DNA from: Saccostrea echinata
Taxonomy: Eukaryota
Length of the DNA: 64,000 bases
Direction: 5' to 3'
NCBI RefSeq assembly: GCF_033153115.1
Contig: NW_026889778.1
Coordinates: forward strand, 39,804,001-39,868,000
Part shown: positions 18,649-50,292 of the stretch, piece by piece
Numbering within the stretch: the first letter of the stretch is position 1
Layout: the number at the start of each line of letters is the position of its first letter
Program-made: the position numbers and the translations under genes
Notes under the pieces: generated by a model
What the model was told of the DNA's origin: nothing
The model's input: the letters and a program-made list of their open reading frames with translations, nothing else
Database searches by the model: none

Positions 18649-19232
18649 TTACATTCATAATTTGTATTGTATACTACGGTTGTGTTTTGTTCAAGGAACT
18701 GTTCTTTCGTTAGATCTTTCAAAGTCATAATAGCAATACCCGCACTACTACCGGGAACCAGGGTGATAAAGACCAATAGATGTAAAGATGTTGATTTCTT
18801 TTTTTTTTTAGAAGCATTAAGAAGACTGTTACATATAACCTTTTACTTTTTTAAAGAATAAAATGTTAGCTTTTTTTCTAACCATATTGCTTGAAGTGCA
18901 CAATGGAACAGTCAGGATGAAAATATTTTACATGAAATATTTCCTGTTTAAAAGAAATCCAAACGCAACACAAAATTAACATGGTTTTGTCGAAGGTCCT
19001 TCTTCTGATTGGTTGATAAGTTTTTATATTAATTGACGGATTGCAAAAAATACCACCCCCAAACTAGTAGGAAAACTATATCTTCTAAAGATTCTCAACA
19101 CAGATCAATTGAGAAGATCTAATTTTCTGCTTGCAAGGTTTGTATCATTATGAAGTACATTAATATGATCAGTGATGCTGGTTAATGCACAATTATTTTT
19201 TTTAAATTTTATTATTTCAGTAACCTTGCAGC

Positions 19233-21340: not shown

Positions 21341-21989
21341 TTGAGATAATGATATAAAAATGAAGATCTCACATTTACCCACGCAGTAAATTATGAGTTG
21401 GTTATGAATTTAGCGTTACTATAATTGGTGCCTCGACCAGGATATCTACATGAACATTTTTCCATTATATCTTTAAGAAGACTGTTTTAGTTAGAATCTT
21501 TATATCTTTTAAAGAATTTGTACACTTAAAATAAATCAATGCATAAAAAAGTAAAAAGTTTAAAAAAAAAAAAACACTTTGTACATCAAGGTACCATTTA
21601 AAGATTCTCTTTGTATGGAATACTAAAACGTCCTGTACCTATACAGTATGAATAAAGTTTGCACTTTCCACTTGATCCATTTAGAATTTTGTCTATTGCT
21701 TTTTAATGCAGTACAAATGACTGTGGAAATGGTTGAATACTCCGAATTGATCGAAATATCTCACTTATAAAATTCTTCAAACAAACACGTGTATTCAAAA
21801 CAAATCAATAATCTGAATAAATACAACAAGAAACATTGTATTTCATGGAACACATGCTTCACATACAGTATTGATATGTATGGTAGAGTGCGAAGTATAT
21901 GGTCAGCATTTTACGTTTTGAACATTAAAAAATATATAAGTCAAAGTTACAAGGAGTGTTTGTTGGCTGTTATGTTTTTAAAAAATCTG

Positions 21990-23675: not shown

Positions 23676-24700
23676 TTAGAATTAAATCATATCCACATGT
23701 ATGGTTCTCTCTCTATCTTAAATCGAATTGGTTTTGCTTAGAACTGGATTTCACGAGTTTAACATACTTGTACTTTTCACGTTCACTTTTCGCGTTAACC
23801 ATATGGTTTGCTTAGAACTGGCTTTCACCAGCTGAACATCTAGTACTTTTCACTTTGAAATTCCATTTTGCAATTATATTTCCCGTTTTTAATTAAAAGA
23901 AGGATCATTTTCTTTTAGTGTCTGTATGCTTTGTATTACATTGTTGAACATGGAAACAGACTTTTGTTGCACAATAATAGGAAAGGGAAAAATGTTTCCT
24001 TCTTCGAGTTAGAATAATTTCATACCTTTTCAACACGATTTTATTTAGTTTAATTAGTCAATTGAAGAGAAATGTCACCTTACCTGAGTTCAACTCTTTT
24101 AGGAAGAAAAAAGCTTTTAAAATCTTGTTCTAAATAGGTTAAGGTTACATAGGCAGTTTTAATTGCTTTTAGCATTTCAATGGTGGCGGGAATTGAAAGG
24201 GGGGAGGGGGCTTCTGTCCTTTGATTAAAGCAGTGTATACATTACACTGAGTATAGAAAGGTTAAAAAAAATAAATGTCAGGTCTACATTGTTGAAAATG
24301 TAACATTTGTCCATCATGAGACTTTTGTGAATGGCTATCGGTATGTTAAGCCTTTTTTGTGAATACCGGTATTTTTGGCGTTTTTGGTACATTCATTTTT
24401 AACCTCATTCTCTCTCAAAAAGAGAAGAAAAACAAGGAAAAATAGCAACAAAAGTCATATGGCTTGACCTGAAGTCTTTTCTGTGATTGGTTAATTGGTC
24501 TCGATATCAATTTAATACCATGAACACCATCCTTGTATTCAAAGTGGAACAGGACATTACACTTAGCTGCTAACACAAAAAAAAAACAAAGGTTTTCTAA
24601 AAAGGTTTGAATTCCGTATATATTGTATTTAGCTCCCATTACAAGAAATTAGCAATTTAATGTGTTTTTCTTTATTTTAGCTGAAGCGGAAGTGGACATC

Positions 24701-26300
24701 ATGAAGTTCTCAGTTTTGCTATGTATCCTCGTCGTCCAGTTTGGAGCCGGTCTTTCTGTGTCAGCTGTGAAATTTAAAAGTATGAAATATCCAGAATATC
24801 ACACTCCATATACATGTACCTGTTCAATACATAGGGCTCACGGCGGGTGTGACCGGTCAATAGGGGATGCTTTCTCCTCCTAGGCACCTGATCCCACCTC
24901 TGGTGTTTCCAGAAGTCCGTGTTTTATACCTTTTGTTTACCGGATTTATGAGACTGATCCCTGTTTGTTATCTTCATTTTTATTATAATTATTTTTTTTT
25001 TGATCTGTTGGTTCATTTTATATTTTCTTTGTCTGTTTTTTTTTTTTTTTTTAAATTTTTTTAAGGTTGTAACCATGTAAGAGAAGCGGGCTTCCTTAAA
25101 AACCAGACATACACTCTTAGGAAGAATGACACAACTTCCTTCAGGGTAATATACGATGTACATGATGATTAATTAATTCAATTAATACCAGGAAGGCTAT
25201 AAATTTTTTTTTTTCAATTTTACATCACTTTAATAAATTTTCCTGCCATTTAATAATACAGAAGTATAAAAATTCGGGTAAAAATTACACAATAGATTCG
25301 TTGCGAGCATGGGTTGTCCTCCTCAAGCCCTGTGATTCTTTTGAGAGGAAACGGAACGGCAAGATTCAATCGTTCCTGGTCGGACTATCAGAGAGGATTT
25401 GGAGATAGTTTGGAATTATTGGGCAGGACTTGACAATATTCATTACTTAACTGCTACAGGTAAGTATAATGAATTGTTCCACTCGAAGGGACTTCGTAGG
25501 ATTGGCAAAACATGAAATAAAAATATAAATATAATAGAAAAAAGCCCCCCCCCCCCCCAAAAAAAAAAACCCTACGTACTGGACATAATTTCCTGATCGT
25601 TTTTATGCCATTGCCAATATTTGAGATTCTTATACTTGTTACATATATATATATAAATATAAAAGCATTAAATAATTGATGTGTATGGTTCCTAAAAGTA
25701 GCATTTTTTCAGAAAAATTTTACAAAATGAAACTTGACAAACTTTAAAACTTTCAAGCAAAGCATTTCGAAAAAAACAACAACTTTATTTTACTTTGTAT
25801 AACACAGTGCGTTCACTTTCATGAGCAAGGATTGACAAATCTGGTTTACATTCCAAAACAATTGTCCCCATATATGTAATGTGTCTATTAGTAATCCACG
25901 TCATAAAAAAGTAGTATATCTTGTTTCAGGATACAACATCTTAAATGTATTAATGTATGACTGGTCTAATGTTGCTAAATACATCGACTATTCCCAATTC
26001 AATGCGCCGAACTATGAGCTCTCCATACGAGGTTCTGTAGGTCAGGTCCCAGATGACCTCTTGTTCAACCATGGGATGAAGTTTGCTACGTATGACAAGA
26101 ACGACTACAATGGTTGCGCAATTAGACTAAGAGTGGGGTGGTGGTACAATGACTGTACATACGCCCTACCCACCGGAGTTTATTATCCGGGAGGAAACTA
26201 TACACCCACAGACGGGTTCTACGATGGAGTGTTTTGGAAGGACTGGAGGGGATACGGATACTCACTCAAATTTATTATAATGAGTTTATCTACTGTGTAA
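24701..26300 (+). pseudogene. FReD copy 4, frameshifted in exon 3 (pseudogene or assembly indel)
   Basis: Exons 24701-24779 (MKFSVLLCILVVQFGAGLSVSAVKFK), 25066-25145, 25296-25459, 25930-26300. Exon 3 is 164 nt. The frame breaks at ~25410: GFGDSL then ELLGRT-stop, while NYWAGLDNIHYLT continues in another frame. Confidence 0.8.
24833..24980 (+). mobile_element. Short dispersed retroelement 3'-end fragment (possibly Penelope-like) in FReD4 intron 1
   Basis: GC-richer block AGGGCTCACGGCGGGTGTGACCGGTC..CTCCTAGGCACCTGATCCCACCTCTGG..GTTATCTTCA, recalled as an abundant oyster repeat. Family assignment unverified. Confidence 0.4.
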
Positions 26301-29519: not shown

Positions 29520-32500
29520 TTACACTTTGTTTTGAACAGATCTCTCTGCTTTCCTAGCACCGCTCTTCAATTTCTGAAATCTGTCAGGATTTCGTCTAAA
29601 ATACACAATAGTAGCTACCACAACCAAAGCCAAAACAATTCCAGCAACTGCGATACCAATGATGGGACCCAGGTTCTGGTGGGACCTGGCCACGTAGACA
29701 CCACCTTGGTCCACCTGGAAGCTGGCGGTTCCTCCGTTAACTGAGGATGGGATCTTTGTCCAGCTGGCCATATCCTGGAATTTGGAGCGGTAAATTTCCA
29801 CATTACTGGCATCAGGATCTACCTGCATCTGAATGGTAAAGGTGGCGCCATTCTGTGTCACCACAGTCTCTGGTCGGATGACAACAAAGTTACTGGCGTA
29901 GTCATCTCCAACCTGCAAATAAACATATTAACACTGAATTTGGTATTGTTCACGAAAAAGCAAAATTACTACAAATAAAAGCAAAATTAAAGCAACATTT
30001 TTTTTTTAATAAAAACTACATGTATATAAAAATTTCATTAAACATTCAATAAAATCTCATATGATTAGTACACTAGCAACACCATATGCTTTTATCATTA
30101 CAGAGTATTTTATTTTGAATTGTTGTGTAAGAAGTTTACAGTGTAGTTTATCTCAATAAAACCAACTTAATGTGTGATATGAATTTTTTTTAATATGAAC
30201 GGAGGGTATGGCTGGGTTACTCACTGGTTCACTCCTCAGTGACCCACTCCCTACTGCCTGTTCGGGGGACCACTCCTCCATTTGTAGGGTCTGTAGAGTG
30301 GCGAAAACACCTTGCCCGACCATCACCTTGGCTCTACTGTAAAAGTAAAGCCATAACATATAAATTTCACTCTTTATCATTCAAATAAAAACTCTACAAA
30401 CTAAAAATTTAAAATGAAGATCCATTCCCTTATTACTTATATGTATTTTCAAAATAATGGAGCGGATGATATTTGTTGTACAGTCCAAATGCTTAAGAAA
30501 CAAAAAAATATGAACCGATTTTCAACAAAATTTGAATCTTACTTATCAGCTAAAGCCAATGTTCCACCTCCCCAGCCAATGGCCTGGTTTCCTGTGAGGT
30601 AGGGTAAAACCGTGATCCTCCCCTTTTGATCTCGATTGGAGAAGTCATTGTTACGAGTACACATGTAGTGGTACGTCCCTTCCTGGGAAATCATACGGAG
30701 ACCAAGATCAAAATAAGTACCCGCATCATCCAGTTGGGAGAGTTCACCTCCAAAATGTCCTATAAAACAGATATGTCAGTCTATGGTGCAATAATTCTCG
30801 TGCATTTTTTAAAAAAAAATCTACATACAAGTAATTTCAAGTTTTATAACAAATTCTGAAAAGTTTTCCTACATGACAAACTTGAAGAGAAAGTTTTATT
30901 GTTGTGCACAAAGCACACTGTGGTCATTTCTTAAGATTATATGCTTCAAAAACACATTTTCTGCATAGTGCAATTTATCCCTAAATACCTGGAGAATTAA
31001 ATGCCAGGTGCAGCAGATCTTCTTGACTAAGACCAAGGAAAGATGAGTTGACAGCATGTGCTGGATAATTCACTCCATATTTTCCGTACACTGCCCCGGG
31101 GCCAAATCTGGTCAGACTGCCCTCATCATAGGTCGGATCTCCAAGCTGGACAATATTGTTCCTATCTGACCTGGCCTGTCCATTGCCGTCATTGTTTGGG
31201 TTGTTAGTATTGGAGCCTGTCCATCTGTACAAGTGAACAATGTCAATATCAAATACTGTAGAATTACTTTTTTCCCTGTGGGATTTATTTATGCTATGTA
31301 TACGGTCACAAATATTCCATGGAAATTTGTTTCAATGTACTTCATGTGCATCTTAGACCTTCAAGAAATCATCATAATATTCTACCTGTGGATTGAACAG
31401 AAATTGTGGTTCCCATGGAAAAAGGTACATGTATGTTTACAGTATGTGCAAAGACACAAAATATACAAAATTCAATGCGGTTAAAGCTCCCAAACAATTT
31501 CTTGTCTATTCACTTAAATAGTGAAATAACAAACGACTATAGGTACTACAAAGATCATGTCATTTTATCCATATTTTGTAATACATGTATCTTGTTGAAA
31601 TACCTCAGTGACAAGTTTGACTTTCTTTGTAGTAGAGTATGAGTTTGTTTTAATGTAAATACAAGTATGTACAAACGTGTTGTTTCAACTATCCATCTCC
31701 GTGTTTATTTATAGTATCCATATTTATTTACCCTAGAAGTGGAGGTACTTCATTTCCATGTTAATTCACTTTATATGTACAATACGTGTACTCTGAGGTT
31801 CCAATATGATTATGGTTAATGTAATATACATGTACATGTATGTTCAAATTTTCTGTCTTTGGGGGTTAACTCAGTGAATATGTATCTTAATTAAAGTTTT
31901 ATAGATTTTCAGCTCTATGTAAACTCACTGTATATGTATGTAATTTGAGGTTCCCATCTCCAGGTTGTTGGGTACAAAGTCGTATTCTACAGATGGGTAC
32001 ACCTGTACAATGTTTCCTCTCTTCCCTCGTACATTGAGATTGGAGATTGTTCTTCCCACGGTACTGGCCGGGCGGGGGCGAATGGCAAAAGCAAAAGACC
32101 TGTAAAGTTTATATTCAATTATATGTATCTTTTCAAAATACTTGAAACCCAGGGTCAGATACTATAATTGCAAAACTTTGGGTTGGGTTTCAACATTTCA
32201 GAGATATATATCCTCTCAAAAACAAAACCAAGTTTCAGGAAAAAAACAAAAACTAATTTAAGAATAAAGTGATATATTTGGTTGAAGCTCTCCATCTTTT
32301 ATCAAAATTATTGGTAGAACTATGTTTCAACATTCTCAAAAAATAAATTAATAAACTCTTAATCACCTGTCCTCAAATGTACGACCAAATTGTGCTGTGT
32401 TTACAGCAAGCTGGAGTTCAAAGTTCGCATCGTTGAAGACTTTAACTTCAGGGTTGTTTTCAAACAGGAAGCCCCTTTGGTTAGCCTCATTTTCAGACAA

Positions 32501-35500
32501 TCCGACTTTGTCAGCCAACTGAGCATCCACATCTGTATCATACGTAGTGTTCCAGCCATTGTAGTCACCAGTGGAAATATTGTACCTGTATATGAAGAAA
32601 TGACTCAGTAATGGAATCCTATGTACCATATACATGTATACTCGCATACAAGTTAATTTACTTATAAGTCGATTGCATTCCTTCAGCTTATTTGGAAGAA
32701 TATTAAATCGACCTGCTTGTAAGTCAGCAGGATTATTTTTTTTTTGCCAAATCAGTTGTTGATTTCAGATAAATATTTTATGGTATTTAACTGACGTGTT
32801 TCAAAGTATTTTTCAGGATACAACATCAATATTTAAAATTTTATTGACAAAATTATTAACAACAATACATTTAAAACAAGAATAAAATCATCACAATGAA
32901 ATAAAAAGATAACGAACAGTTACACACTTGCACTGCAATCTGTACACACTTGACAAGTACTAAAGGCATATAGAAACCTTAAAATTTCCTTTCCTGCTTT
33001 TTAAAATATTAAGAATTTATCTCGACTCTGTCAATTTTCATTGACATTATTTATGAAAATACTACATTAAGGACTAACTTATCAGTTGGACAGATTGTTT
33101 AAGACCAAAATTTATTTCCCAAAAATCTGACTTAAATGTGAGTATATATACATGGAAACAAGTAACAGTTACTATAAAGTCAGAACCAGACAATAAAGCT
33201 CCCCAATAAGGAAAGCAGATAATATAAAGCCTCTGTTATAGGGAAGTTGTATATTTTCCCCATCCCTCATATCAGATCAAAAAAGAAATTTGATTATAAA
33301 GAACTAAATTGAATAATTCTTAATCAAATGCATAATTCCTGTTCATCCCTACATAGCAATGTGTTAAAATTATGGTATTTATTCTTCAATTAATTTCATA
33401 AGCACCTTATTCTCATGGCACAATTCTCGTGAACAGTATTGGGCACAGTCCAGTTGAAGACCAGGGCGTGACCTCCGATCCCGTTACCTAGGTGATTGTC
33501 TCTAGAGAACTGGGTCTCACGGCAGTCTGGGGCCTCGATACCAAAGGCAGGGACCTCCTTCCACTCTGCCAATACACCATTGGGGTCGTTACTGGGGTAT
33601 CTGTACACCTATTCATTATCAACTTCAGTTTAGTAATATCAGACATCAAAATTGAAGAATACCAACACTTCAAACATAGTTTGTTTATTTACCGGTATAT
33701 AATCAGCTATTCAAGGAGATCACAAATTTTACAAAACAAATAAGAAGCAAACAATTCTGATTGTTAACTTTCTTCAATTTAAAGTTTCTTCTCTTTTTTT
33801 TTCAAGTTTGATAAAAATTTACTTTATTAATATTTGTATGAAATCATACACTAAATTTTTAAATGCCAAATTCAATGTCTTTTTACTAAATACTTATATT
33901 TAGGTATTTTTTTTAAAACTGTTAACTGACAAATACGAAAGTTCACTCAAGTTTTTACCCCTTCCCTCCCCTCCCCCTTCTTGCTAACTCTTTACTGTTC
34001 CCTAAAAAAAAAAAAATAATAAAAAATTTCTTCCATAAAAATTGCTAGAGTTATAACTGACCTCACAAGCCTCTTTAGTGTTGGGGAGGGTGATTCTGCC
34101 AAGGTTTTCTTGGAGAACCTCTGCTGGCATCACACAGCCGTACCGGGGTTTGACGTTGGCACTCTCAGCTTTGTAATAAGGACATCTGGTGGCATCATTA
34201 GTCAGAACAGCAATATCCTACAAGCACCACATATCAACATAAATATAACATTTTTTTTTTCAAACCAATTCCTCAATGGTAAGCAAGCTTAACCTCATAC
34301 ATGTATGTCTGCATGTATGCATAGTACTTAAAGTATTTTATAAATAATTTATATTAATTAAAATAAAAATATCTGAACAGTTTAATGTTTTACAAAGATT
34401 AATAATAGAAGTTTTTGTTCAATATTTTAAAAAGTCCTGTTCATCTTGCTTTATAACCTAACATTAATTTTGTAAAGAAAAACAGCTGACCATCCAAGGT
34501 GTGGGGCCCCAGTAAGGGTAATAATCCCGCTCCTCTGGGCACTCGTAACCATAGCGCTGACCATTGGGATTCTGTCGAGTGTTGACTGCCCTGTTTCTGT
34601 TATTCAGATTCTAAAATTTGAATTCAATAACCTTATTATATTACACTATAATCAACCTAATTATAAAACTTCACCTTTCATATTACATTGTAGTATGATA
34701 TCAATTTCTGCAAATCTGGGTGATATATTTTTGTAATTTGTAATTTTAGAAAAAAAACCCCAAATTTTATCAAGAAATAAGTATCTGATTTTGTATGCTG
34801 CAATCACAAAAGCTGTTTGCAAATTTCTATCGAAATCATATTTGTATCTGAAATATATTTCATTTCTAAAGCTCAGCTGTTCAAGTTTGCGTGGGAGGCA
34901 TTAATTACTACAATGTGTAACACCCACCTATTCAGATACATTTCTAATAGGCATTTTTTACAAACATTTAATTCACATGCAAGGTATGAAATTCTTTCCA
35001 CTGACCACCATTTATAAGGAAATAAATTTCCTGCTTAATCACGACACGTTACAATAAAGATATCAGGAAATAATAAACCCTTTCAATATTGTAAAACAAC
35101 CTAAGCTTTCCCTATGAAGTCTTATAAGGTTACAGGTAATTAATACCCCTCTCACCTGGTCTGCTATAAATAGCCCTTTGTTGCGTTGTCGTGACCGACA
35201 ATTAAGGTAATATTCATAGTTCTCGTTCATGCCATATTCTTTATCTGTATTGCAGTTTCCCAGTCGACAATCATCTGGATTGGTGGGTATAGTACTGAAA
35301 AGTAGAAATTTCATATTAAGCACAGTGGTGTCCATCAAACAATCTTCATTACAATTTACATTTCAAAACATTTATTCAGTTATTTTTAGAATTTTTTATT
35401 CATGTGCTGGATTCTGAAAAGAAATCTGTCAGAATTTGTTTATTTATCAGAATTAATAATTAATTAAATTCTCTTAATTTTATATCAGGGAATGTTCTTT

Positions 35501-38500
35501 GACAGCATCAATGATTCATTTTGATAATTTTGCACAGAAATATTGTCAGTAAATCTTTGAATATTTTCAATACTATATATATTGTGACAAGATGATAACA
35601 TTGTATGTACATTCATTAGATGAAAAAAAATTCATAAATTACTAAAACATGCAGACATATCTCTCCATGGAGTCAATCTCCCAAAGTAACATCTATATAC
35701 AAATAGTTCTTGTAAATTTCTAATGTCTACGTGGAAAGAGCCACATTTTTTTTCATAGTACAGATAACATAATATCTAGTGCTTTATAGTCTTTGTCGTG
35801 GTTTACTTTTTTTTAATTACACAGATGTTAATTTAATTACTTTGTGGAGGCACCATCCCTGAGCTGGTCGTCACACATATACTGTAGAATTATCTCACAA
35901 TGGCTGTTAGGGTTACTGCATGAATGCTGGTTTGTCCTGAAATAAATAAATATGTGCTATACATCAGATTATAAATATAAAGCAAAAAAAGGTTTAAAAA
36001 AAAAAAAACGAGAGAGAGAGATACAAAGTTTCCAATTCAATTGATTTTCAAATAATGTACGCAGGTGGGTTAAGAATCGCAATTTTCATCAATTGCTCAC
36101 AAATTATGTTCAATATATAAGGATTTTTCTATCTGCAAAGTTGATCCCTCATAGTTAATACATAAAATTGATCCTACCCCCACTGTCATCCCTTTAACTC
36201 TCCTATATACAAGTACATACCACTCTTTTGGTCAATCCTGTATATCCTCACACTGATTTTAACCCTATTAAACCTTCTCAGCCATCCCTGTACCTGTACT
36301 CACCATTCTATCTGTAGGGTTGACCCCACGTAGTAGTAGAGTGACCCAACATTGTATCCCCCTCTATTGTTGTTCTGAGAGTCAAACATCCTGAAAAATC
36401 GACAGATTGTGTTATACATAAATTAAAATATATCTTTCATACAACTACAATGTTTCTTTATCATAAAATGATAAAAAGTTTTTAAAAAATCGGAAGTTTT
36501 ATTTAAAAATAAAAGTTAAATATGCTTCTTTTGCTATTGAATAATTTTATTCACCACAATTTATACAGAAGTACTAAACTATTTCCTGTGATGTAAAATT
36601 CCTACAAATTAAGGATGTGCGGCATATTGCAAATCACCTGAGAATTACATTCATTGCCAGTACAAAACAATTGGAGTAATTAAGACACAGGTAATGATGG
36701 CCAGACAAAACCACAAAACTAGTAAACAAAACAGGTTTTACAGGAAAGGAAAATATTTCTGTTGTGTTTTTGTTTAATTTAATATGTCAAAAAGTAGACC
36801 ATCTTGATCCTTAACCACTTATAAGTGACGTATGTGTTTCACTAGCTAGGATACAGACTTTCAATATCCCAACCAACAGTAGTAAATATTCTTGATTCAC
36901 ATGGCAACCTTAATACTTAAGATTAGCAAAATATAAAAAAAAACATTTCAATTCTTTAATTTGTGTGATGCATTTATAACGAGCCCTGCAATTTAGCTTT
37001 TCAATTATTATGATAAATTATGCAAGCATTAAAAATAACAACAATAGTGTGTATGCATGCAAATGAATTTCATTTTTTGCCAATATCTTTCTTTATGGAG
37101 GAGAATTAGGACCATTTTTTTTTGGTGGGATTTGCATATATATATATGTGTTAAGATAGACCAACTGGCACCGCATGGGGACTTTAATTTAAAATACTTT
37201 TCTGTTGTTTTTAAATTCTAAAATAAGCCTTAATTTTGTTTCCTTACCTTTTATTATTCTGGACATTTCTGTTTTCTTCATCCAACCTGTTGTTACCTCC
37301 CCTGCAAAAATAATTGTCAAACATAATTAATCTATTGAAGATTTACTTATTGTACATAATTGCCTAAAAAGGTGAAAGGCCATTCTTTAGGTACTAGATG
37401 ATACAGTATGATACGTACTGTAAAAGCACGAATTTTAATTTACAGTATCATTGTTTGGTTATGTATGTATTTCATTTTGTGCAGTGACATAATTATACAG
37501 TGAAACCTGTCTAATCAGACAGGCAATGGAAGACAAATTTTGTGTCAGAATAGACAGACTGTCAGATTACACTGTGTAAAGAACATAGAAAACAGTAAAG
37601 TGGGAATGACAATATACAGGTCAGAATTCACAATGAAACGGATTGCACAGGTGTCAGATTAGACAGTTTTCACTGTATACACATGTATATGCGAATGATC
37701 AAGAGATTTTTTTTTTAAAAAAAGAAGAACTTCAAAAAAAAAAATATTTATTTATTTTGAAAAGGACTGACTCTTATTTCAAACAAAAAGACCCTCTACT
37801 TTGAGAGAGAATTTTTTTGCATTTTTAGAGTTTTTCAAATTTTTTTTTTTTAAATTTCTGATTAAAAAAAATTCACTTTGGATAGAAAAGTGAACTATCT
37901 ATACTATCCTGGGTATTCCCTGAAAACAAATAGAACTTAATATTAAATACATGCTTCTTTTCATCATATAGCTATATGTTATATATGTTGTACATTCTGA
38001 CATTCTTTCTTGCTCAGTGCTTTATCCTTTCAATTGCCAAACAGACAATGGATTCATAATAGATGGTTTTCCTATAACATATTTTTCCTTGGAGTTATTT
38101 CCCTTGGCTGCCATCTTGTAGGTCAAAGTAGTGAATTTCCCTCTTTGAGCAACCAATTTTAAAAATGCATGCCAAAAATATATAGGGCAAAAAATATTTA
38201 CAATATTGAAATTATGAATTAAAAGAAGCTTTAACAAATGTATATTCATAAGGAAAACAGTGTTATCTTCACCTCAGTGCCCAGTATAACAAATTGAACT
38301 TGGCTGAATAATGAACTTGGGATCTGGGGATGTTGACCTACAATATGGCAGCCATGGGAAATAACTCTTGCTTAAATCACCTTGATGGAATACCATCTAT
38401 ATGTTACATTAATACATAAACTAAATTTTTTGCAAGAAAGTTAACCTATGCAACTTCTGGGTGTATATGCATTTACTGACTAACACTAGATACGCAGAGG

Positions 38501-39795
38501 AATGTAGAAAACGTTCTGCACTTTAATGGTTTAGAACAATAAACTGATAACATGATAACATACTTAAACTGTGTACAAACAAAAGGTTCAATATTTGTCA
38601 ATAAAGATAAACTTTGGAGTGTATTTGAACAACAAGCTTCTACCATTGGTGAGCAGCGATCTCATTTTACCTACATCATATGATCAGTTTACAAGTCCAT
38701 GATAAATGTTTATGAGAAACTGTAGTGTTGTTGTAGAATTCCAAAATGAATGAGTCAGTGTTTTTGTCATCATATTTAGTTCAAGATACTGCAGAATATT
38801 GAAAGATTTAGTGAAACAATAAATAATACATTTGTCCCTTGAATTCAAACATATTATTAAGTATATAGTCAAGTGGGTTCAATAGTTATCACCTTGTACT
38901 GAAGAGTACAAATATTTAATTTTGGTGTTGCAGATGCAAATAAGTATAAATTGTTAGAGGTAAAATACTGGAGTAACTATATCCTGACAATGTGCATACA
39001 TGTTATCAATTATTTAATTTGATGGAGTGGTTGGAAGCACATCAGACTTTAATGCCTTAAATTAATTCTAGACTAAGGACATTTTTACAAGCTGGTACAT
39101 TATTACACTTGTGGTAGATTGCCGGTGGCCAGTTAGCTCAGATGGTAGGGCATCTGACTAGTGATTCAGGGAACCCTGGTTGAAATCCTGGTCTGGTTAT
39201 CACATTTTCTCCCCTCCTGTTACATACTTAATAGCAGTGTTTTCCCTTTATTTCTAAGTAAAAGGTTAGAGACCATTGTAACAGGCTTTGGGTTGAAGTT
39301 TATGACAAAACTCTGTGGACCTTACAACAACTTAATTTTGATTTTTCAAAATTTACATGTATTTTTATTATTCTGAAGCGGGATTTTTATCAATGGAAGC
39401 GGTCGATTTGGCCGGTAGTCTGTTCTTAGGGAAAACACTGTAATAGTCATCACATGACCAAGGATCAAGATGACATCTTATCAAACTATATGAAATTTTA
39501 ATACCTTATTGCAGTATTCATTAAAACATTCACCAATTAATACAAAACAATTGTTAATGACTGTTGACATTTGATATATGTGACATGATGATGCATTGTC
39601 TCTATACATTGTTCATGTTGTTACAAAACAAATATTAATGTTGACAGTTGTAGGAATAATAAATTAAAAATCATAACATTTTATACTAAAACTGTAATGA
39701 AATAATTACCTTGGATTATGTAAATAAACATCAGCTCTCACAGACTTCCATAAAACAAGACAAACAGTCAACAAGACAAAGTGAAAGTTACTCAT
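29520..39795 (-). CDS. DD3-3-family protein, membrane-anchored form (signal peptide + DD3-3 core + extra beta domain + TM + short tail), 762 aa, 14 exons
   Basis: Exons (5'->3'): 39795-39710, 37301-37248, 36390-36304, 35936-35841, 35294-35156, 34610-34491, 34217-34062, 33608-33406, 32585-32367, 32099-31929, 31224-30989, 30759-30543, 30336-30225, 29912-29520. All GT-AG and phase-consistent; 2289 nt. Motifs [100 protein letters not shown] segment [22 protein letters not shown] followed by RR. Confidence 0.88.
37498..37675. mobile_element. Tc1/mariner(pogo)-type MITE
   Basis: TA|CAGTGAAACCTGTCTAATCAGACA ... TGTCAGATTAGACAGTTTTCACTG|TA. Confidence 0.8.
38058..38402. mobile_element. Inverted-repeat element (MITE-like) in intron 1 of the membrane DD3-3 gene
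   Basis: GAGTTATTTCCCTTGGCTGCCATCTTGTAGGTCAA (~38091-38125) mirrors TTGACCTACAATATGGCAGCCATGGGAAATAACTC (~38333-38367). Outer ATAGATGGT/ACCATCTAT match. Confidence 0.6.
39110..39224 (+). mobile_element. 115-bp solo LTR containing a tRNA-like sequence (Helenus-type non-autonomous LTR element)
   Basis: TGT...ACA termini; flanks CACT/TACT (4-bp TSD, one mismatch). Internal box A TAGCTCAGATGG, anticodon-like arm CTGA-CTAGTGA-TTCAG, box-B-like GGTTGAAATCC. Confidence 0.6.
39235..39440. mobile_element. hAT-like MITE, 13-bp TIR, 6-bp TSD
   Basis: TAATAG|CAGTGTTTTCCCT ... AGGGAAAACACTG|TAATAG. Confidence 0.75.
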
Positions 39796-40320
39796 TTTGT
39801 CTTTGACTTCACACACAGTCTACTTAAAAATTTGCTTCAGTCTCTGTATTCGAGGTGTGTCAATATTTAAATCAAGCAGTAATTTCATCCAACCCCAAAT
39901 TAGGGAAACTGGACACCCTGTGACGTAGATAAGTATCGCAAGCACAGTAAATTATCGTATACACCGTTTACACATTATCTGACTCATGGTCACTCAACAT
40001 CCTGATTCCCTTTCTGCGTAAATATTCCGCGCGCAGGTATAGTTCGTAAATGATTTAAGTTCACGTTTTGAAAGAGTTTATTTATAAATAAGTTACTATA
40101 CTTTAAACTTAATTCTTAATTTTGATATTGGTAGGCACAAGAACTTCTAAGTGAAAATAGATTGTTGGTGTATATAAAGTTGCATTTACAAAATATCTAC
40201 TTTCATTTTCACGCGAATGAATATTATTTACAATGTGTATTTTGATCGCAGGTGAGGACTGAGGTGTGTAACTGTGTTACAGTATAACTGGCAGAGAGGA
40301 TAACAATAATAAAGGTAAGA
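39796..40320. promoter_or_regulatory. Putative bidirectional promoter of the two DD3-3 genes
   Basis: Lies between divergent ATGs at 39795(-) and 40720(+). CRE-like TGACGTA 39921-39927; AP-1 TGACTCA 39980-39986; CpG-containing patch. Likely + strand 5'UTR exon 40252-40314 (CAG acceptor, AAG|GTAAGA donor). Confidence 0.55.
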
Positions 40321-40719
40321 AAACACATAACAAACATACACGTAAATTTATTTAGGAAAAATCTTCCCTATTTATTGCCAAATGTGTAACGTTAGTGGGA
40401 AGATAATGAGGAAAAAAAAAATTCACGATAGTGTCAGCTGATAGAACCATGTATACTCTCCCATTTGTGAATTTTCAAAAAAAAAAAAAAAAAAATGAAG
40501 TTTTAAATTGAAAACACTAGCCTGTTATATTGGACGGACTATTAAGGGATATCGTAATGAAGAACTGAGTGTACTCCCTATAAAGGACAGTAACTCTGGC
40601 TTATAAAATGTATACATTATAGCAGATAAAAATAAAATGATTTAATTTTGTTGAAGTTTGATATTATAGACTTTTTCACATATTTTATGTAATTTCTTTT
40701 TTTTTGTTTTGATTTTAGA

Positions 40720-43700
40720 ATGAGGAGGCTGGTTCAGTTCTGTGCCTGTATGTTGCTGCTCCACCAAGTTGGAGCAGATTTGTACTTGCATATGCCAAGA
40801 GGCAGCAACAATAGACTTAACGAGGCCACAGCAACAAGGGCTAATGCTAACAGGGTGTTTGATTCACAGGTATGCCCAGTAACATTATACAATTATGGAC
40901 CTGTTTAGAAGGGAGACATCACAAATTATCTAGTCTAGGGTATCACCTGAGCCCGATGGTGACAACCCTACTCAGACCTAATAATTTGTGATGTCTCCCT
41001 TCTAAACAGGTCCATAATAGTTTTATTATCCTGATTGAAGAATCTGAATTTTATAAAATAGAATAGGATATGTCAATCAAACCTCTTGTGTTATCCTTAA
41101 CCCACTGTTCTGATTCCATACCGAGGGTACTTTCGAAATATATCAACAGACAATTTTGAGGTCACCATTAGAATTTATTGTTTACCAATACTGCATATAT
41201 ATCAATTATATATGAGAGGAACCTTGCTTATGACATTTTATTGTCATCTAAAGGGAGATAACACAGTTGCAAGTCTGCTCCCTTGCGCTATTTTATTGTC
41301 ATTTGAAGGGAGACAACACAGTTGTTACCCCATGTGTGAGGGGACATCACAGATTGTCTCCCTGCATGTGATGTTCTCTAGACCAATCAGATTAACTGTA
41401 TTATTCTGAAGGATAATAATGCTATAATTGCTTACCTTCTTGTATTTAACCCTAAAAATAGGTAATAACCTGTAGACTTTATAAAGCCTAAAATGACCCT
41501 CTGTTCAAGTATGATAGTTACATGTAAACTATGATAAAGTTAAAAGGAGTTGAACCCTTTTGCATACTTAGAAGATACAATTATATTAATTAGAATTTGT
41601 GCACCATAGTATTTTTTGTGTGTGTATGTGTGTGAAAACATCAGCTACCATACATGTAGCACAGTTTTTTTTTGTACAAAGACTGTTTTAAAAAACAATG
41701 TTGCAGAATTTTTTATGACCTTTATAGTCCATGCCATTTATATCTGTTTAAAAGGTGTGAGTGAAATAATCAAATATTTTTATATTGACATCATTTACAG
41801 AACAACAACAGAGGGGGTTACAACGTGGGAGATGTGGATAAAGACAAATCAGGAAACAATGAAGGAAACCAGTATAGAATGGTAAGTACCATGAGAGAAT
41901 GGTATTAAATGGTAGGTACCACAAGAGAATGCTTAAATGGTATAGAAGTACCCTGACAGAATGCTAAAATGGTATACAATGGTAGGTACCATGAGAGAAT
42001 GCTAAAAACCTGGTAATATAGAACTGCAAGTATTACTGGGAGAGAATAAATCAGCTACAACATGGTGAATACCAGTAATAATATTTAAAACGGTATAGAG
42101 TAGTATAAAACTATACAACAAATCAATGGAAGCAGTATAGAAAGTACTGTAGATTACTAAAGCAGTATAGAAAGTACTGTAGATTACTAAAGCAGTATAG
42201 AAAGTACTGCAGATTGCTACAGCAGTATAGAAAGTACTGCAGATTACTAAAGCAGTAAAGAAAGTACTGCAGATTACTAAAGAAGTATACAAAGTATTCA
42301 GAATTCCAGATTTACTTAAGCAGTATAGAAAGTACTTCAGATTACTAAAGCAGTATGCAAAGTACTGCAGACTACTAAAGCAGTATAGAAAGTACTCCAG
42401 ATTACTAAAGCAGTATACAAAGTATTCGGAATTCCAGATTACTTGAGCAGTATAGAAAGTACTTCAGAGTACTAAAGCAGTTCAGATTATAACAGTGTAG
42501 AAAGGACTCTAGATTTTTAAAGCAGTATAGAAAGTACTGCAGATTAATAAATGGCAGTATAGAGAGTACTCCAGATAACTAAAGAGGTATGAAAAATACT
42601 TCAGATCACTAAAGCATTGTAGAAAGTACTTCAGATTAAAAATGTATAGGAATTACTAAAGCAGTATAAAAAGTACTGCAGATTACTAATTTGAAAGCAT
42701 TATAAAATGTATTCTGGAATACTAAAGCAGTCTAGAATGGCTAGTAACATATATTAATTAAACATGGGGGACTCATAAATACCATACATTGAGGAGACCT
42801 TGTACAGATAAATGACATAAGGTGCCATAAAGATTTAAAGAAGCAGACATTTTATTCATTGATCATCATCATAGGTTTCAGCACTTTCTGCATAAATTCA
42901 TAACAAAATATGCCAGATAACAAATATGTAAGTGGCATGGAAATTAAAAAAAATATTTGGAATGAAATGTGAATTTTGATTTTAGTATTCAATTAGCTAT
43001 GTAGGTGGAGGTGGTTTTGACCCACACCTGATATAGATTTCATTTCTAGTGTGTATAATGAATAAAATGTCAGTATCATGTTTTGAAGAAATAGAAAAGT
43101 TAACATAAATCGCAAAATCAGAAATGTGGGTGTGATACCGTTGAACCTTTTTGTGACAAGCTGCTATAATGGTGGCTTGTCATGAAAACATGCAACTGTT
43201 CAACAATTTGCAAGTTTTTTTCCGTAATTTTATCCCCAAATTGTTATAGAATTACTGTCTCAAGGAAAAAAGCATCAATAACCCTTAAAGCTGACCTAAA
43301 TTTACAATCACAAGACTTATAAAAGTATTTACTGGTAATTGGTCATGACACAAACTATTCTGGATGCTCAAGTGGTGCATGAAGATTGTCACAGACTGAA
43401 CACTGCAATATATGATGCAAGCTTTAAAGCATTTTGAATTTAAATGAATTTGAAGTATATGATATTGAAATTTAATGTTTACATGGTAGTTCTAAACAAG
43501 CAATAATTGTACAATCTTAAAATATTTCACTTTGTATCATAGTACATATGCACTATGTAAATTATGTAAAGCGATCAGTATAAAATGACTCAAGAATATT
43601 CTTCTGTCTCTCAAGGAAGCAGATTTAACATAGTATTAAATAATGACACTGGTTTTCAACCTCAGAAGTCCGTATAGAGGAAGCTGTGTTAGTTTCAGTT

Positions 43701-46700
43701 ACAAGATCCAGGAAGTCAGCAATCCTGGATGACTAAATGACAATTACCTTGTGTGTACGATATTGTCAATTACGGCAAACTACTTAACAACGTACGTCTT
43801 CATATTGACGCACCTTAAAATATTACTTAAGTTATAATTTGCATAAATATTTACTTTCTCACTTGAATTTAATCTCATGATTTTGAACTAGATCTATATG
43901 TTACACATCATATCAGATTTTGAATTTTTTTTGCAGATCTTTAGGGGCATTATAACAATATGCAGACCTATATAAATTAAAGACTCATAAACTAGTAATT
44001 TTACACTGTCCACTGGTGTCATGATTACAAAATTTCTGAAAATTTTCAGTTAGGAACAATTTAAAAGGATGAGATTGACTTTGCTTATCACTATACTATA
44101 GATCACCAAATGTTTGTGACACCTTATTTTCTAGAGATAGTTGGTTGATTTATTAAGGAGTGATATGATAAATACAAAAAATGGATACATGAGTGGTATA
44201 TATTTTTGAACCTATTTTGGTTATAAATGATGCAAATAATATTAAAGAAATTGTGAAACTTTTTTTGATGTCCAAAATTCTACCTTTTTGCCATCACCCT
44301 AATAATTCAATCTATACAACTTTTTATTACTTTATAGGACATTTAATATATAGTGAAACTTTGAATGAAATAATTAATATTATTAAAATCTATGCAGCTA
44401 AACTTCATGATACTTAAACAAACACAATCTTCATTCTGATTTTCATAATTTTTGAAAAGTTTGTTTCATCTGTCCTTAAGTGAGGAAAAATTCATGAAAT
44501 TTGGTTGTTGCTGTATGCAAGAATGGAATTTTCACCAGCAGTCTTGTGTAACACCAAAATAAAGGTCTCGTGAATAAAAAGTGATTTACAGTATTCCATA
44601 CATTGCCCACGTGGCGCAGTGGTAAGAGCATCTGCTCTAGAGTCGCAGAGTAAGGAGTTGAACCCACTGTGGGACATGGAGACCAGTCCCTCAGATGAGA
44701 CCATATAAACCAAGGTCCCGTGTCGCAGTAGGTGCTGGCATGATAAAGATCCCTCACTGCTCAATGGCCCTGAGGGCTGAGCATAGGTCAAAATTTGCAG
44801 CTCTCCATCGGCAAGTGGTGGTGTCTCCATATATGTGAAAAATTCTCGAGAGGGATGTTAAACAACAAACAAACAACAGTATTCCATACATATAAAATTC
44901 CTGTGGAAAAAAATTGAAAATATATTCATTTTGTATTGCATTAAAATTTTTTATAGCAATATTTCCAAAGTGGGTCAGCTACCCCAAATGTGAAAGACAA
45001 AACTTACCTGACCGTAGAATGGACCAATCAGCATGGATGTGGGGGGAGTGAGAATACAAACCCCCAGAAACACAACTGTCACATGGTGCTCCAGTACATG
45101 TGTCAGGATGATGTGTCATCACCTGTAGGTAAGTTTCCATAGCAACCTCAGGTAGATATTTTAATCATACACCTAACTCATCCATTTGTAATGGTGCATG
45201 GATGAGTTAGGTGTATGCAGAGAAGCTTTTGTGATACAAACACAGTCAAACCTCATTATCTTGATTCTGAAGGGGCTTTGAGTACTTTGACATATCCGAG
45301 TATTTATAGAGACACATAAAGGTTAAAATACGTAAAGAAAATGAGGGTAGGACTTTGGTCTCACTTAAAACATATCCATGTATTCAGGATATCAGTGTTC
45401 AAGCTAATTTTCAACTGTATACATGTAAATAAAATGAACTAAATCTTAGGCAAGTGAAAAGTTTGCTAATTAGTTCAGCAGGGTAATTATAACCTTTTAC
45501 ACATAGGTACTGCCACTGGACTTTATCTATTTTCTTATCACAAAAAATGTATTCTATGTATTCTCCTATCTGATTTATTAAGTAGGGGGTTATATTTTTT
45601 CTGATAAGAAAGATAGGTAACATCAAGTGTCTGTTGTTTAAGGTGCTTGTAAGAATACTTGTTCACTTATGAGTCCAGATAACATGGTTTAATAATAATT
45701 ATTTTAAATTTGCTTTCAGGTACAGCAGACACTTTAAGAAATGGTGTCTCAACTCAAACTCCGAATCACAACAGGGCTGGTAGTTTAAATGAGAACAAAA
45801 ACACGGCCCAGAACAGAAAGAATAACAATATTAATACGGAGAGGGTGCTGCAGGAATCCTGGGATTGGTACGACAAGTGTTACATGAGAGAGAGAAACAA
45901 AGGTAAGGGGTGGGGGTCTTTATGATCTCCTAGCCAGGAAAGGGTTAAATTATCAGATTAAGAGATAGGTAAAGGGAGGTAACTCATACTTTGTAAAGAT
46001 ATGGAAACATGGGATTGGTACGACAAGTGTTACATGAGGGAGAGAAACAAAGGTAAGGGCACAATTCTCTGATTCCCAGGCAAGAGGTACATATGTAGTT
46101 ATCAAATTCCTAGGTATAAAAAAGGAAGTAGCTGATAATTTGTAATGGGATTGCATCAAGATATCAGTATATAATAGCATCATTGAATCAATTAAAGGTC
46201 AAATTACTTATTCAATTTAGATTTCTGATACTTGAGAATATAAGAAAATGCAAATATTAGTCAAAGAGAGATAACTGCATATGATACAATGCATTAATAT
46301 GGCTTTTATCATTGTTGAAGTTTCATGGGAGCGATCAAATAAGGAGAAACAATTATTACAAAGTTACAAATTCAAACATATTGAACATTTTTAAAAATTA
46401 ATTTATAATCATTAATGAAATTAACTTTACTCAAATCCGGATTCAGACATTTTATCTTAAATGTTCAAATTTCTCATGGTAGGACTGTTTAATGCTGACC
46501 AGAAGCTAAAGTCAAACAATGGGCTGGGATTTAGTAGTGCCATCTACACTCGTCAGAATCCCAATGGGAATCGCTATGGTTACGAGTGCCCAGAGGAACG
46601 TGATCACTTCCCCTATTGGCATCCCACCCCCAGGACTGATGTTGCCATCCTAACAGATAATACATCTCTTTGTAGGTAGGTGTCAACATTTTTTGTAAAC

Positions 46701-49700
46701 ATGCAGTGACAAGAAATGTAGTTATAAAGGTAGAAAAAAAAGTCTCAAAAGTATTAATATTTAAGGGGGACATTTTTTTTTTAAAAACTTGAAACAAAAA
46801 ATTAGCTATTTATTTAGCATGGATTTTTTTAGTCTTTCCTTATATGATACATGTACATGTATATGAATATTTGTTTTTCATTTAAAAAAAAAACAACAAA
46901 AATGTGACTCTTTATTGCATTTATGAAATAGTTTAAGATGCATCTCTGAAGTTATGTACAAAAGCTACCTATAATTTTTAAAAAATATAAAATCTTTTAT
47001 TTCTTTATTGCAGTTTCTTTGAGGAGGGAAGTTTTAACAGGAAGGCTTACGGAGAGTGTATAGAAGAGTACGGTGATGGTAGTCGTAAACACTGGTCTCG
47101 CTGGAACAACAGACAAGAATGTACAGAAAATGGTGGACAGTGGGTGGAGCTTAGCAGCTATATTGAAAAAGCTACACGTATGTATATAAACTGTTTTCAT
47201 TAACTTATTTCTTTATTCATATTTTATATTTTTTTTATATCCAGTAATCTGTAAGGGAATAATTGTCATTTATATGACCCCCCCCTTCTCTCAGTTACCA
47301 GAAGCATTTGTATTATTAACTTAAATCCTGTACAAAATTTCAGCACTAAACATGTAGCTTTAACAAAATTAAAACATCTTTGAGACACAATACAGTGCAC
47401 ATAACAGGTAATTTTAAGACATGCAAAAATTAAGTCATTGAAAAAAAAATCATCTTTAAACCATCAAAGTATTTGATCAATTATAACATATATAGACAGA
47501 TGGCATTAAGATGATTTTTACAGTTTTCTTGTTGTTTAAAAGTTTATGTGTTTGACATGTTGATGTAAATTTCCCAGAATTCACCTCTGAAGGTCAGTGC
47601 ACATCTCAGGCGGCGCAGGGAAACAGGTACGTCTGGGCAGTGCCATACGATGCCACTGACGTCACCAAGAAAGAGTGTCTAGTTCAGGCGCCACCAATAG
47701 ACTGTCAACAGGCAGACTGGTCAAGGTAGGGGAATTAAGCATTTAAAAAACTGCCTATAAAACACAAATTTCTGTCAAGATGAATTATTTAGTGTGCCCA
47801 ATGTGATAACAAATAACAGAAAATAACTAAATCATTTTACTTGTATCAGTAAGCAGAGAATAATTAATTGTTTTTTTTCAGCACTTGAATCTTACATATA
47901 TGTCAGTAAAATGATTACTTTAAACTCTTTACAGATCAAATCATCTTGGAAATGGTATAAATGGAGAGGCCAATCGCTATCAATGGGCTCTGCCATATTT
48001 CCCATCCAACAAAGACAAGAGATGTGTGTTTAGGATGAGGTAATGTCTTTCATAATACAAGTATGTTAATATATAGGATCAGTAATTATTCCAACAGCAT
48101 ATTATAACCTATTGAGTCCATATCAATATTATTTCTTCAGCCAGTCTATATATATTGTACTGCCTTTAAACATCTGATAAATGTCTTCTTTTTAAAGCCA
48201 AATCAAGCTGTACATGTAATTTTATTTATGCCCCTCAACTGTACATCAAAACAGTTATTATATGATTAAATTACAAATAAAATTTTATTTTTGTTTTCAG
48301 GTACAACATTTCCACAGATGACTATGCCCCTTATTCCACTGATAGCTCTAGGAATTTGTAAGTAATTGCTGATTTTAATTAATTTTTAAAAATTTTTCCT
48401 ACTCTCTATGTAAACATTTAAATCCTATCCTACATCAGCACTCAAGCATTCTCAATGGGAGATTTAAAAAAAAAAGAGTTAATTTAAGTAAGAACACACA
48501 CTGTATAAGTAGAATTTTTAGCAAAGATTCAATTTTGGCATTAAATTATTACTAAGAGTGTTAGATCGCTAAATTTGAATATTGCTAACAGTTCATTCCA
48601 TATAGGAGATAGCAGCTATCTTTCTTGGCACCATAAAATCACTAAAATTAATTCTCACTGAAAATGTATACCAATTTTTTTAGGGCAAATCGCTAAATTT
48701 GTGTCTAGCTAAAAATTCCACTATATGGTAATGCCAACATTGTATGTCTATGAATGTAAAATGTTGTGAAATTGTTTGAGAATACAGATAAAATGATAAA
48801 GAGGAAATCTTCCAATGTTATAGGATATTGTAGCCCTAATTTTTTAGTTCATAAAAGAAATCGATAATTGTTCAAAAATGTAAAGAATTTTCTTTTATTC
48901 ACAGAAATAATGGAATAGAGGGTATTACCTCCCCTATCGAGGACAACCCATATGTTGATGTTGGAGGTAGATCTGCCCTTCGGTTGAACATCAACACCGA
49001 CCAGACAGGGCGTATATTCCAGGACCGCAGTCACCTCTTTAAGCTCCTCACCAGACCATCCTCCATCCAATCAGATAACATCTTCAACATAAATGTCCGA
49101 GGAAAGCGCGGAAACATAGTGCAGACATACCCAGCTGTGGAGTACGATTTTATCCCTAATAATCTACAGTTGTCAGAATCAGACTCCGTACATATACAGT
49201 GGACAGGATCAAATTCACATAACAATGGTGGGGGTGGAGGTGATGGACAGGCTGGGGATGAGGGTCAAGGCACTGGAGGTGAGTGAGCAGGTGGACATAA
49301 AAACTCTTGTTGAGATTGTCCCTGTAGATATAGAAATGAATGGGAGAATTTTAGATAATATCATAAACTTTTTATCATACAGGTATATAGCAAATGAATT
49401 TAATTTGGTTTAAAATTTCTTCAAAAAATGTCTTTTATTTGAATCTGAATGCCACTGTGAAGCATATCATACATATATTAGTTAAACATTTTCTTGCTAC
49501 AGTATTTTTAAAACCTGGTCGAAGAGCGTTCAAACTTAGGGAGACAACCAGTTCATAGAATATGTTTATAGATTTTCTGATCTGCTAAGGGATGACTTTT
49601 GGCTCTTTTCCAGGCACTGACAGAAGCAATATTGTACAGATTGCTGATCTGAATGATAATTTTCCGATGCCTTTTGAAAAGACCAATATGTGGACAAATG

Positions 49701-50292
49701 CTAACATTCGCTGGATTTACCATGGTAAAACTGATGTCTCCCCAGAAAATTTAGCTGTTTCCATGGCATCTGCTGGCTATTACAGGTAATTTTATTTAGT
49801 TTACTTTCTCTTGATCTTAATTATCAGAATATCAATGATCTTGTATGATTGTAATCCAAATTTTTTTGCAATGTAGTATTAGTCAGCAGAATTTTCATGC
49901 ATTTAAGAAAAACTTATTTGAATCATTAATTCTGCTCCATTTTTTTTTCAACTTCAGTCTTTGAAGGGAAAAAAATTAGTCATAAAGCCATTACCCTTTA
50001 ATCCTCAGGTCTTTTCATCTTTCAATATCATATTTAATGAAGAACTGTGTGCAGAATAAATCTCAACCATTCTTTTATTTACAGATGCATAAAGAAACAA
50101 GACTGCCCTGAGGCAGCACACAATGACTACATCGTGGAAACCAAAACCAAAATGAACGATTTACTCAACAATGCCCCCGCCTCGTTCACAGGTGCAGTCC
50201 TGAGGTTTAAAAAGGGAACCTATCATTATATGTCAACGAGAAATAACAACTTCTCCAACAGAAGTCAGAAATCAACACTGACTGTTGTATAA
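40720..50292 (+). CDS. DD3-3-family protein, secreted form, 668 aa, 12 exons
   Basis: Exons 40720-40869, 41801-41881, 44957-45128, 45720-45902, 46483-46675, 47014-47177, 47578-47725, 47935-48039, 48301-48357, 48905-49278, 49614-49785, 50085-50292. All GT-AG and phase-consistent; 2007 nt. Signal peptide then [14 protein letters not shown] and the same core motifs as the - strand paralog. Ends [18 protein letters not shown]-stop with no TM segment. Confidence 0.9.
40892..41420. mobile_element. Hairpin-headed non-autonomous element in intron 1 of the secreted DD3-3 gene
   Basis: Perfect 38-bp inverted arms at 40892-40929 and 40981-41018, then a segment bounded by TTATTATCC...GGATAATAA. Architecture shared with 3797-4173. 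Confidence 0.7.
42130..42745 (+). repeat. ~30-bp minisatellite (AAGCAGTATAGAAAGTACTGCAGATTACTA)n, about 19-20 units
   Basis: Directly visible tandem units. Explains the spurious repetitive ORF 42002..42292. Confidence 0.9.
44604..44875 (+). mobile_element. Full-length tRNA-derived SINE (Meta-domain type) with 16-bp TSD
   Basis: ACAGTATTCCATACAT is duplicated at 44588-44603 and 44876-44891. Box A TGGCGCAGTGG; central GATGAGACC..TAAACCAAGGTCCCGTGTC block; (CAAA)n tail. Confidence 0.9.
45243..45417. mobile_element. Degenerate pogo/Tc1-type MITE
   Basis: CAGTCAAACCTCATTATCTTGA ... TCAAGCTAATTTTCAACTG|TA imperfect TIRs. Confidence 0.5.
48500..48730. mobile_element. Degenerate MITE
   Basis: ACTGTATAAGTAGAATTTTTAGC ... 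GCTAAAAATTCCACTATATGGTA imperfect TIRs; internal ATCGCTAAATTTG repeats. Confidence 0.5.

Follow-up and report, generated by a model that had tools for sequence, protein, structure and literature searches.

DD3-3 is a widely conserved cell-surface protein that has been connected with aggregation, the sensing of microbes and allorecognition, and in the papers found it has neither a Pfam family nor a biochemical function. What fold does its N-terminal half adopt, and what might the exposed N-terminus of the mature protein do? The question arose at a 64,000-nucleotide stretch of the oyster Saccostrea echinata (NCBI RefSeq assembly GCF_033153115.1, contig NW_026889778.1, positions 39,804,001 to 39,868,000; the whole of it is called the window), A+T-rich, intron-bearing animal DNA in which exon reconstruction gave two intact, open reading frame (ORF)-consistent DD3-3 genes, A and B, arranged head to head. 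A first inspection of the letters alone (the sequence-only reading) had proposed that the N-terminal half resembles lytic polysaccharide monooxygenases (LPMOs), with Asp in place of the first copper-binding His, and that the site might be either remodelled for metal or turned to glycan binding. We conclude that DD3-3 is probably an offshoot of the LPMO superfamily and is not itself an LPMO. The genes and the domains in question are as follows.

29520..39795, minus strand: DD3-3 gene A, membrane-anchored type, 14 exons, 762 residues.
39733..39795, minus strand: signal peptide of gene A, residues 1-21, placed from the sequence and from the Edman-determined start of an ascidian homolog at the equivalent Asp.
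32069..39732, minus strand: predicted LPMO-type beta-sandwich of gene A with large insertions, residues 22-397 (mature 1-376), exons 1-10.
30605..32047, minus strand: predicted cupredoxin-fold domain of gene A, residues 405-574, lacking a type-1 copper site.
40720..50292, plus strand: DD3-3 gene B, secreted type, 12 coding exons, 668 residues.

The product of gene A is identical over 762/762 residues (100%) to the NCBI entry "protein DD3-3-like [Saccostrea echinata]" (P0121), and it runs from the signal peptide through the LPMO-type, cupredoxin-type and ZU5-like domains to a transmembrane helix and a short tail. That of gene B is 86% identical to its closest homolog (P0001) and 60-70% identical to named DD3-3-like proteins, to which both genes are similar over their full length. 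A and B share 47% identity over 539 aligned columns, and the tree places A-type and B-type proteins in ancient paralog groups; the transmembrane helix is C-terminal in the gene A product and absent from that of gene B.

Fold and strand register were read from a predicted model, and site geometry was deduced from them. When this model was searched against 48,161 chains, ranks 1 to 8 were all LPMO or X325 structures, and 19 of the top 50 rows belonged to the LPMO family, aligning over 118-161 residues versus 82-118 for the other rows of Ig, FN3 or CBM type. In a second search, of 715 chains, LPMOs took ranks 1 to 6. The predicted fold is thus consistent with the LPMO beta-sandwich, as had been proposed by eye. 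The first residue of the model was paired with the first residue of the matched chain in 17 of the 19 LPMO-family rows, a pairing that does not discriminate by itself because FN3 rows pair likewise. The domain extends further than first drawn, to about 32069 (residue 397) and not 33406, and its last strand, with the axial position, lies in the added part. When the documented axial Tyr/Phe of ten LPMOs spanning AA9, 10, 11, 13 and 15 was located by an ungapped backward count starting at the last aligned pair, it fell on mature position 364 for nine of them (4oy7, 4opb, 5msz, 3uam, 4mai, 5acf, 5ftz, 4a02 and 2ben) and on 362 for 5fjq, the sole exception. Phe363, a by-eye guess at the axial residue, was dropped in favor of 364.

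Covariation agrees with this topology. Mean-field direct coupling analysis (DCA; 251 sequences, effective number 211) returned the pairs C76-C288, L72-M290, T298-G360 and V47-I372, all consistent with the LPMO arrangement, and V2-I292 at z 11.8, whose equivalent in AA15 is the invariant pair Gly2/Trp158 (Trp158 is present in 98/98 AA15 domains). In such a topology Asp1, His59, Tyr294 and Gln/Glu364 would gather at one pole of the predicted sandwich. The residues concerned in both genes, with mature numbering set by gene A Asp22 = 1, are these.

39730..39732, minus strand: gene A Asp22 (mature Asp1), at the His1 position, the proposed aspartate brace (amine plus carboxylate).
39718..39720, minus strand: gene A His26 (mature His5), facing the cupredoxin domain and unlikely to be a ligand at the Asp1 site.
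35924..35926, minus strand: gene A His80 (mature His59, in TNQH), equivalent of the second brace His.
33408..33452, minus strand: gene A strand W-x-V-P...C-A-M-R-I, counterpart of AA15 LP..C..C.LQW, with Ile313 for the conserved Trp.
32582..32584, minus strand: gene A Tyr315 (mature Tyr294), placed by topology at the same pole as Asp1.
32372..32374, minus strand: gene A Glu385 (mature Glu364), at the axial Tyr/Phe position of LPMOs.
40777..40779, plus strand: gene B mature Asp1.
45032..45034, plus strand: gene B second-brace His (TNQH).
49020..49022, plus strand: gene B Gln at the axial position (FQDRSH).
49086..50289, plus strand: cupredoxin-type domain of gene B, with Ser where a type-1 site has its Cys, by alignment to gene A.

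Conservation was counted over 297 aligned sequences, only those with a residue in the column being included. Position 1 is Asp in 208/208 homologs; two NADPH oxidase (NOX)-fused proteins, unaligned there, appear by eye to have Asn or Gly. The ascidian homolog HrSMLP1 of Halocynthia begins, by Edman degradation, with Asp-Met-Tyr-Met-Gln, thus with Gln at position 5 (PMC6916515), and this start, together with the Asp counts, bears out the cleavage before Asp that had been predicted. Position 59 is His in 236/241 and follows strand 50-57, so the retained second His also stands. Tyr294 is invariant (287/287), as is R366 (285/285), and position 364 is Gln in 244 and Glu in 40, together 284 of the 285 sequences, gene A having Glu where most homologs have Gln. 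The axial aromatic residue of LPMOs is therefore replaced, a change that the sequence-only reading lacked, as it did the cupredoxin domain. Aligned position 292, the conserved core Trp of AA10 and AA15, is I, L, M or V in DD3-3. Since His1, the axial aromatic and the Trp are all missing, DD3-3 does not belong among the LPMOs proper. The search for prokaryotic homologs, with 71 candidate stretches, found no His1-bearing intermediate. As for the motifs first noticed, the Asp-starting and TNQH-type ones occur in both paralogs; the middle one is found in gene A, spread over exons 3-4, and differs in gene B ([12 protein letters not shown]...CHMVLQYMC); and in the last one P and C, first given as 5 residues apart, have a spacing of 6 in gene A and of 9 in gene B.

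Sequence comparison offered marginal support for LPMO homology. Against a profile of 98 AA15 domains (of 120; 22 were excluded for a missing start or end motif, or for length), hhalign scored the W-x-V-P...C strand segment, alone among eight tested, above 40/40 column shuffles, and paired H59 with AA15 H92 weakly (E 0.13). Our own long-gap profile alignment was matched by shuffles in 1/100 and 2/150 trials at one gap cost; it put H59 out of register, and a cupredoxin control scored at chance. Several comparisons lent the homology no support. The other seven segments, including 1-20, 36-80 and 351-376, failed to top all shuffles; the long-gap score was matched in 6/100 and 13/150 trials at the other gap cost; hhalign of DD3-3 against eight oyster AA15 exons gave a probability of 5.7%; and a Foldseek search with the N-domain returned zero matches at E<=0.001 in PDB or BFVD, AA9 rows first appearing at E ~1. 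Because the structural scores are middling and Foldseek alone is empty, homology is probable rather than proven. Pfam PF03067 was unmatched by 12 exons, by 5 homologs and by a further scan of 22 homologs including P0121, and no Pfam family covered the DD3-3 core in exons or homologs. Searches of the PDB by sequence and by profile gave no meaningful match, the ESM Atlas returned just a hypothetical cluster (0.77) for the N-domain, and a homodimer prediction of that domain with zinc included scored 0.00 with no contacts, which counts neither way. The oyster genome itself has at least 25 matches to PF03067 (AA15-type), with the canonical His1 wherever a first exon was seen (loci L001-L010).

The sequence-only reading had also suggested that a new His at position 5 takes over from His1. 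Position 5 (n=220) is His in 170, Gln in 34, Asn in 6, Thr in 4 and Ser in 4, and the strongest DCA coupling of His5 is to V403 (z 9.6), in the cupredoxin domain, toward which N6-N388 (z 9.0) also points. Lying four residues down strand 1 and coupled to the cupredoxin domain, His5 falls outside the Asp1 pole and is probably not a ligand of that site. The domain that it faces has a predicted Greek-key cupredoxin fold. Its type-1 positions, assigned by motif and by eye, read S 141, N 55 and H 49 of 265; C 147 and S 90 of 252; N 250/252; and Q 233/252, which departs from the His, Cys, His, Met/Gln set of a type-1 copper site. With these positions degenerate and His1 lost, both domains have folds of copper proteins and neither keeps the canonical ligands; the model suggests an LPMO-type sandwich docked on a ligand-less cupredoxin fold. 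Two further histidines are conserved, His285 (33492-33494) in 183/197 and His442 (31934-31936), on an outer strand of the cupredoxin domain, in 272/273; a second site around them at the domain interface is possible.

A functional lead came from fusions to NOX. Among 22 homologs scanned, mostly the longest matches, ferric-reductase and FAD domains occur together in 10, of which 9 also have an NADPH domain; the fusions make up 10/150 representatives and 10/18 matches of at least 1000 residues. Named hosts are a diplonemid, dinoflagellates and the amoebozoan Ceratiomyxa. Measured by the signature His101, His119 and Thr-Gly, as given in PMC3591440, these protist homologs have a NOX core: His101/115/119 occur in 10/10 and Thr-Gly in 9/10, two of the ten ending early at the C-terminus. 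They group as one clade (SH-aLRT 91; 83/236 eligible rows, quick method), which suggests one fusion event. His59, Tyr294 and Gln/Glu364 are kept in 10/10, Asp1 in the 6/6 aligned there, and His5 in just 5/9. No NOX Pfam domain was found in P0121 or P0001, and the oyster genes are unfused. DOMON and peroxidase-like extracellular domains on a NOX-type core elsewhere are described as electron-transfer agents, and the DD3-3 fusions suggest a redox role, or one with reactive oxygen species (ROS), for this ectodomain too. Other partners or insertions of DD3-3 are SUEL lectin, PAN, SH3 and a farnesoic-acid methyltransferase-type domain (P0174, P0056, P0109, P0290, P0194).

Because two copper-protein folds, an invariant Asp1 and NOX fusions come together, a remodelled metal site and extracellular ROS handling seem likely in general terms; metal binding, the identity of the metal and the ROS role are all deduced from these features. 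The specific mechanism that we put forward, tentatively, is that the predicted two-domain DD3-3 binds one metal through an aspartate brace and works with NOX-derived ROS. On chemical grounds, the alpha-amine and beta-carboxylate of an Asp can close a six-membered chelate, much as the amine and N-delta of His1 do. The N-terminal amine and carboxylate of Asp1 would supply two donors and His59 the third, with Gln/Glu364 axial and Tyr294 nearby. An amine, His and carboxylate set (2N+1O) binds Cu(II) at ~2 nM in YcnI (PMC8424229). The ectodomain would act on, or be driven by, superoxide or H2O2 that NADPH oxidases produce at the cell surface, the unfused oyster proteins acting in trans. With the axial aromatic and core Trp lost, the latter a guard of AA10s against oxidative damage (PMC11087555), and with heavy insertions, LPMO chemistry on crystalline polysaccharide is argued against, and DD3-3 would not be expected to cleave chitin or cellulose as an LPMO. 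The cupredoxin domain and the NOX fusion shift the proposed role from glycan binding to redox. A broader version, in which a pan-eukaryotic LPMO branch with an aspartate brace serves as the catalytic partner of NOX, as a fusion in protists and in trans among invertebrates, using up cell-surface superoxide or H2O2 much as the DUOX peroxidase domain does, we regard as rather unlikely.

The same features could be read without metal. Both domains would then be homologous folds emptied of their sites, a pseudo-LPMO on a pseudo-cupredoxin, with Asp1, His59, Gln364 and invariant Arg forming a buried salt-bridge network in a recognition or scaffold ectodomain, either a self/non-self marker or a NOX accessory. 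Ligands have indeed been lost from both canonical copper sites, many invariant Arg (R8, R13, R361 and R366) lie near the pole, and a V21-E364 coupling (z 6.3) suggests that an insertion caps the site. Recognition would also suit the occurrence of DD3-3 joined to SUEL lectin, PAN or SH3 domains, HrSMLP1 has been linked to allorecognition (PMC6916515), and the fungal AA11 protein CWR-1 is active in allorecognition without its brace (PMC9550227). However, strict Asp1, exact processing and a retained second His exceed the obvious needs of a scaffold; polymorphic recognition proteins do not usually keep 41-60% identity between animals on one side and giant viruses and protists on the other; and sequence variation in HrSMLP1 did not follow allorecognition. 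We consider this account improbable, though it is the main competitor.

Less probable again is that the domain is a generic FN3/Ig-type sandwich with large insertions, its N-terminus and loops at the usual pole and its motif likeness convergent. Z scores are middling, with CBM, FN3 and macroglobulin rows within ~1-1.5 Z, the LPMO sandwich itself has been called unremarkable and near macroglobulin MG2 (PMC5094447), and there is no Pfam or PDB-sequence match; but the LPMO family fills the top 8 of 48,161 and the top 6 of 715 with longer alignments, strands 1 and 2 are separated by an insertion, like the "bud" of LPMOs, T-x-x-H comes after the same strand, and one segment beats 40/40 shuffles. 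We think it very unlikely that His5 substitutes for His1 as a copper ligand, or that a flat face binds chitin or other glycans: position 5 is Gln, Asn, Thr or Ser in 48/220, including NOX fusions and the Edman-sequenced protein, His5 couples to the cupredoxin domain, and some 230 residues are inserted around the core. The glycan-binding suggestion has gathered zero positive evidence, and the NOX fusions point to redox or ROS instead.

DD3-3 has 2,520 representative homologs at E<=0.001 and is highly conserved, occurring in amoebae, algae, invertebrates and giant viruses. Intact single-ORF copies occur in giant-virus metagenome-assembled genomes (L013:2956-4821, L014:1918-3702, L015:2386-4188 and L016:2914-4764; L017 is broken). 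The viral proteins retain Asp1, His5 and His59, and His264 is Arg in 5/5 intact ORFs, including L011. In the search for prokaryotic homologs, 2 of the 71 candidate stretches passed (L011:2953-4644 and L012:2699-4083). Both were rejected as bacterial DD3-3 and read as misbinned, since L011 nests within the clade of giant viruses (SH-aLRT 100) and L012 contains introns.

Published accounts describe DD3-3 as induced in a sponge by microbial patterns (PMC6208332), as marking the epidermis of sea-star larvae (bioRxiv 10.64898/2026.09.20.752982) and, in Dictyostelium, as a single-pass membrane protein with an AlphaFold model (PMC10022678). A literature search covering few subscription journals and no supplements found nothing linking DD3-3 to LPMOs, cupredoxins or NOX, no LPMO fold for it and no N-terminal Asp brace; fusions of DD3-3 to NOX may be listed in File S1 of PMC3591440. 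The fold assignment singles out three residues for mutation. If the site holds metal, DD3-3 would offer a natural way to ask whether the first histidine is required in the LPMO brace; taken with the NOX fusion, it would also add to DUOX a second route by which surface ROS is coupled with an extracellular domain.

The remaining features of the two genes and of the window are as follows.

29673..30601, minus strand: juxtamembrane ZU5-like domain of gene A, a lead only, from an ESM Atlas feature match.
29591..29672, minus strand: transmembrane helix of gene A, about residues 713-739, hydropathy peak 2.8.
39796..40719, no strand: head-to-head interval between A and B, from transcript contigs.

The ESM Atlas match of the juxtamembrane domain was to a ZU5 cluster at 0.87, under the 0.9 mark, and Pfam gave zero matches there. 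Splicing was judged from transcript-type contigs of three runs from two studies, whose RNA status is an automated guess: 11/11 introns of gene B and, among the joints listed, at least 11/13 of gene A were joined, the remaining two gene A introns being seen merely as loose contig ends that match the adjoining exon. The gene A transcript extends to at least 39951 and a non-coding 5' exon of gene B ends near 40314; a shared promoter in the interval is possible. Two exon queries against the same genome gave one match each and no further DD3-3 copies, in a search that was insensitive because the second query missed the known paralog. Elsewhere in the window we noted at least four clustered fibrinogen C-terminal domain genes upstream of the gene A 3' end (7982-26297), a tandem pair of single-ORF B-box/NHL (TRIM-like) genes (53829-58714) and a single-ORF gene for an RNA polymerase Rpb3/Rpb11-type subunit (63336-63719). 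Intron 2 of gene B holds a very high-copy short repeat that looks by eye like a short interspersed nuclear element (44572-44876, contig depth ~10,000) and a degenerate tandem repeat with a unit of ~30 bp (42130-42700), and intron 4 repeats the 3' end of exon 4 almost exactly, donor site included (46010-46056).

With the LPMOs ScLPMO10C (4oy7), AoAA13 (4opb), TdAA15A (5msz) and AoAA11 (4mai), DD3-3 shares secretion, the predicted beta-sandwich with an insertion after strand 1, a functional mature residue 1, T-x-x-H after the same strand and an LP..C..LQW-type strand. It differs from them at residue 1, which is Asp and not His, at the axial position, where Gln/Glu replaces Tyr/Phe, and at the core Trp (W178 in SmAA10A, W158 in AA15), which gives way to Ile/Leu/Met; it also has about 230 extra residues and a fused cupredoxin fold, and it does not match PF03067. 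X325 (LaX325, 6ibh) and YcnI are non-LPMO uses of the N-terminal brace, and the YcnI donors (amine, His N and carboxylate O) are those proposed for DD3-3; both keep His1 along with a carboxylate co-ligand, whereas in DD3-3 the carboxylate would come from residue 1 and the His from the second brace position, so DD3-3 does not fall in that class. Relative to cupredoxins such as plastocyanin and purple cupredoxin (5fc9), its type-1 positions read S/N/H, C/S, N and Q, and its domain has a large insertion and packs against the LPMO-type domain. Dictyostelium DD3-3 and Halocynthia HrSMLP1 belong to the same family as the oyster genes, with the same mature N-terminus, and are described, in the accessible text of those reports, without a fold beyond likeness to the Ihog FNIII domain and without a biochemical function. 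The protist DD3-3-NOX proteins follow the same plan as DUOX and the DOMON-ferric reductases, namely signal peptide, ectodomain, transmembrane helix and NOX core, except that no EF-hand pattern was found in 10/10 fusions; the ectodomain is peroxidase-like or DOMON there and DD3-3 here, and in the oyster it stands unfused.

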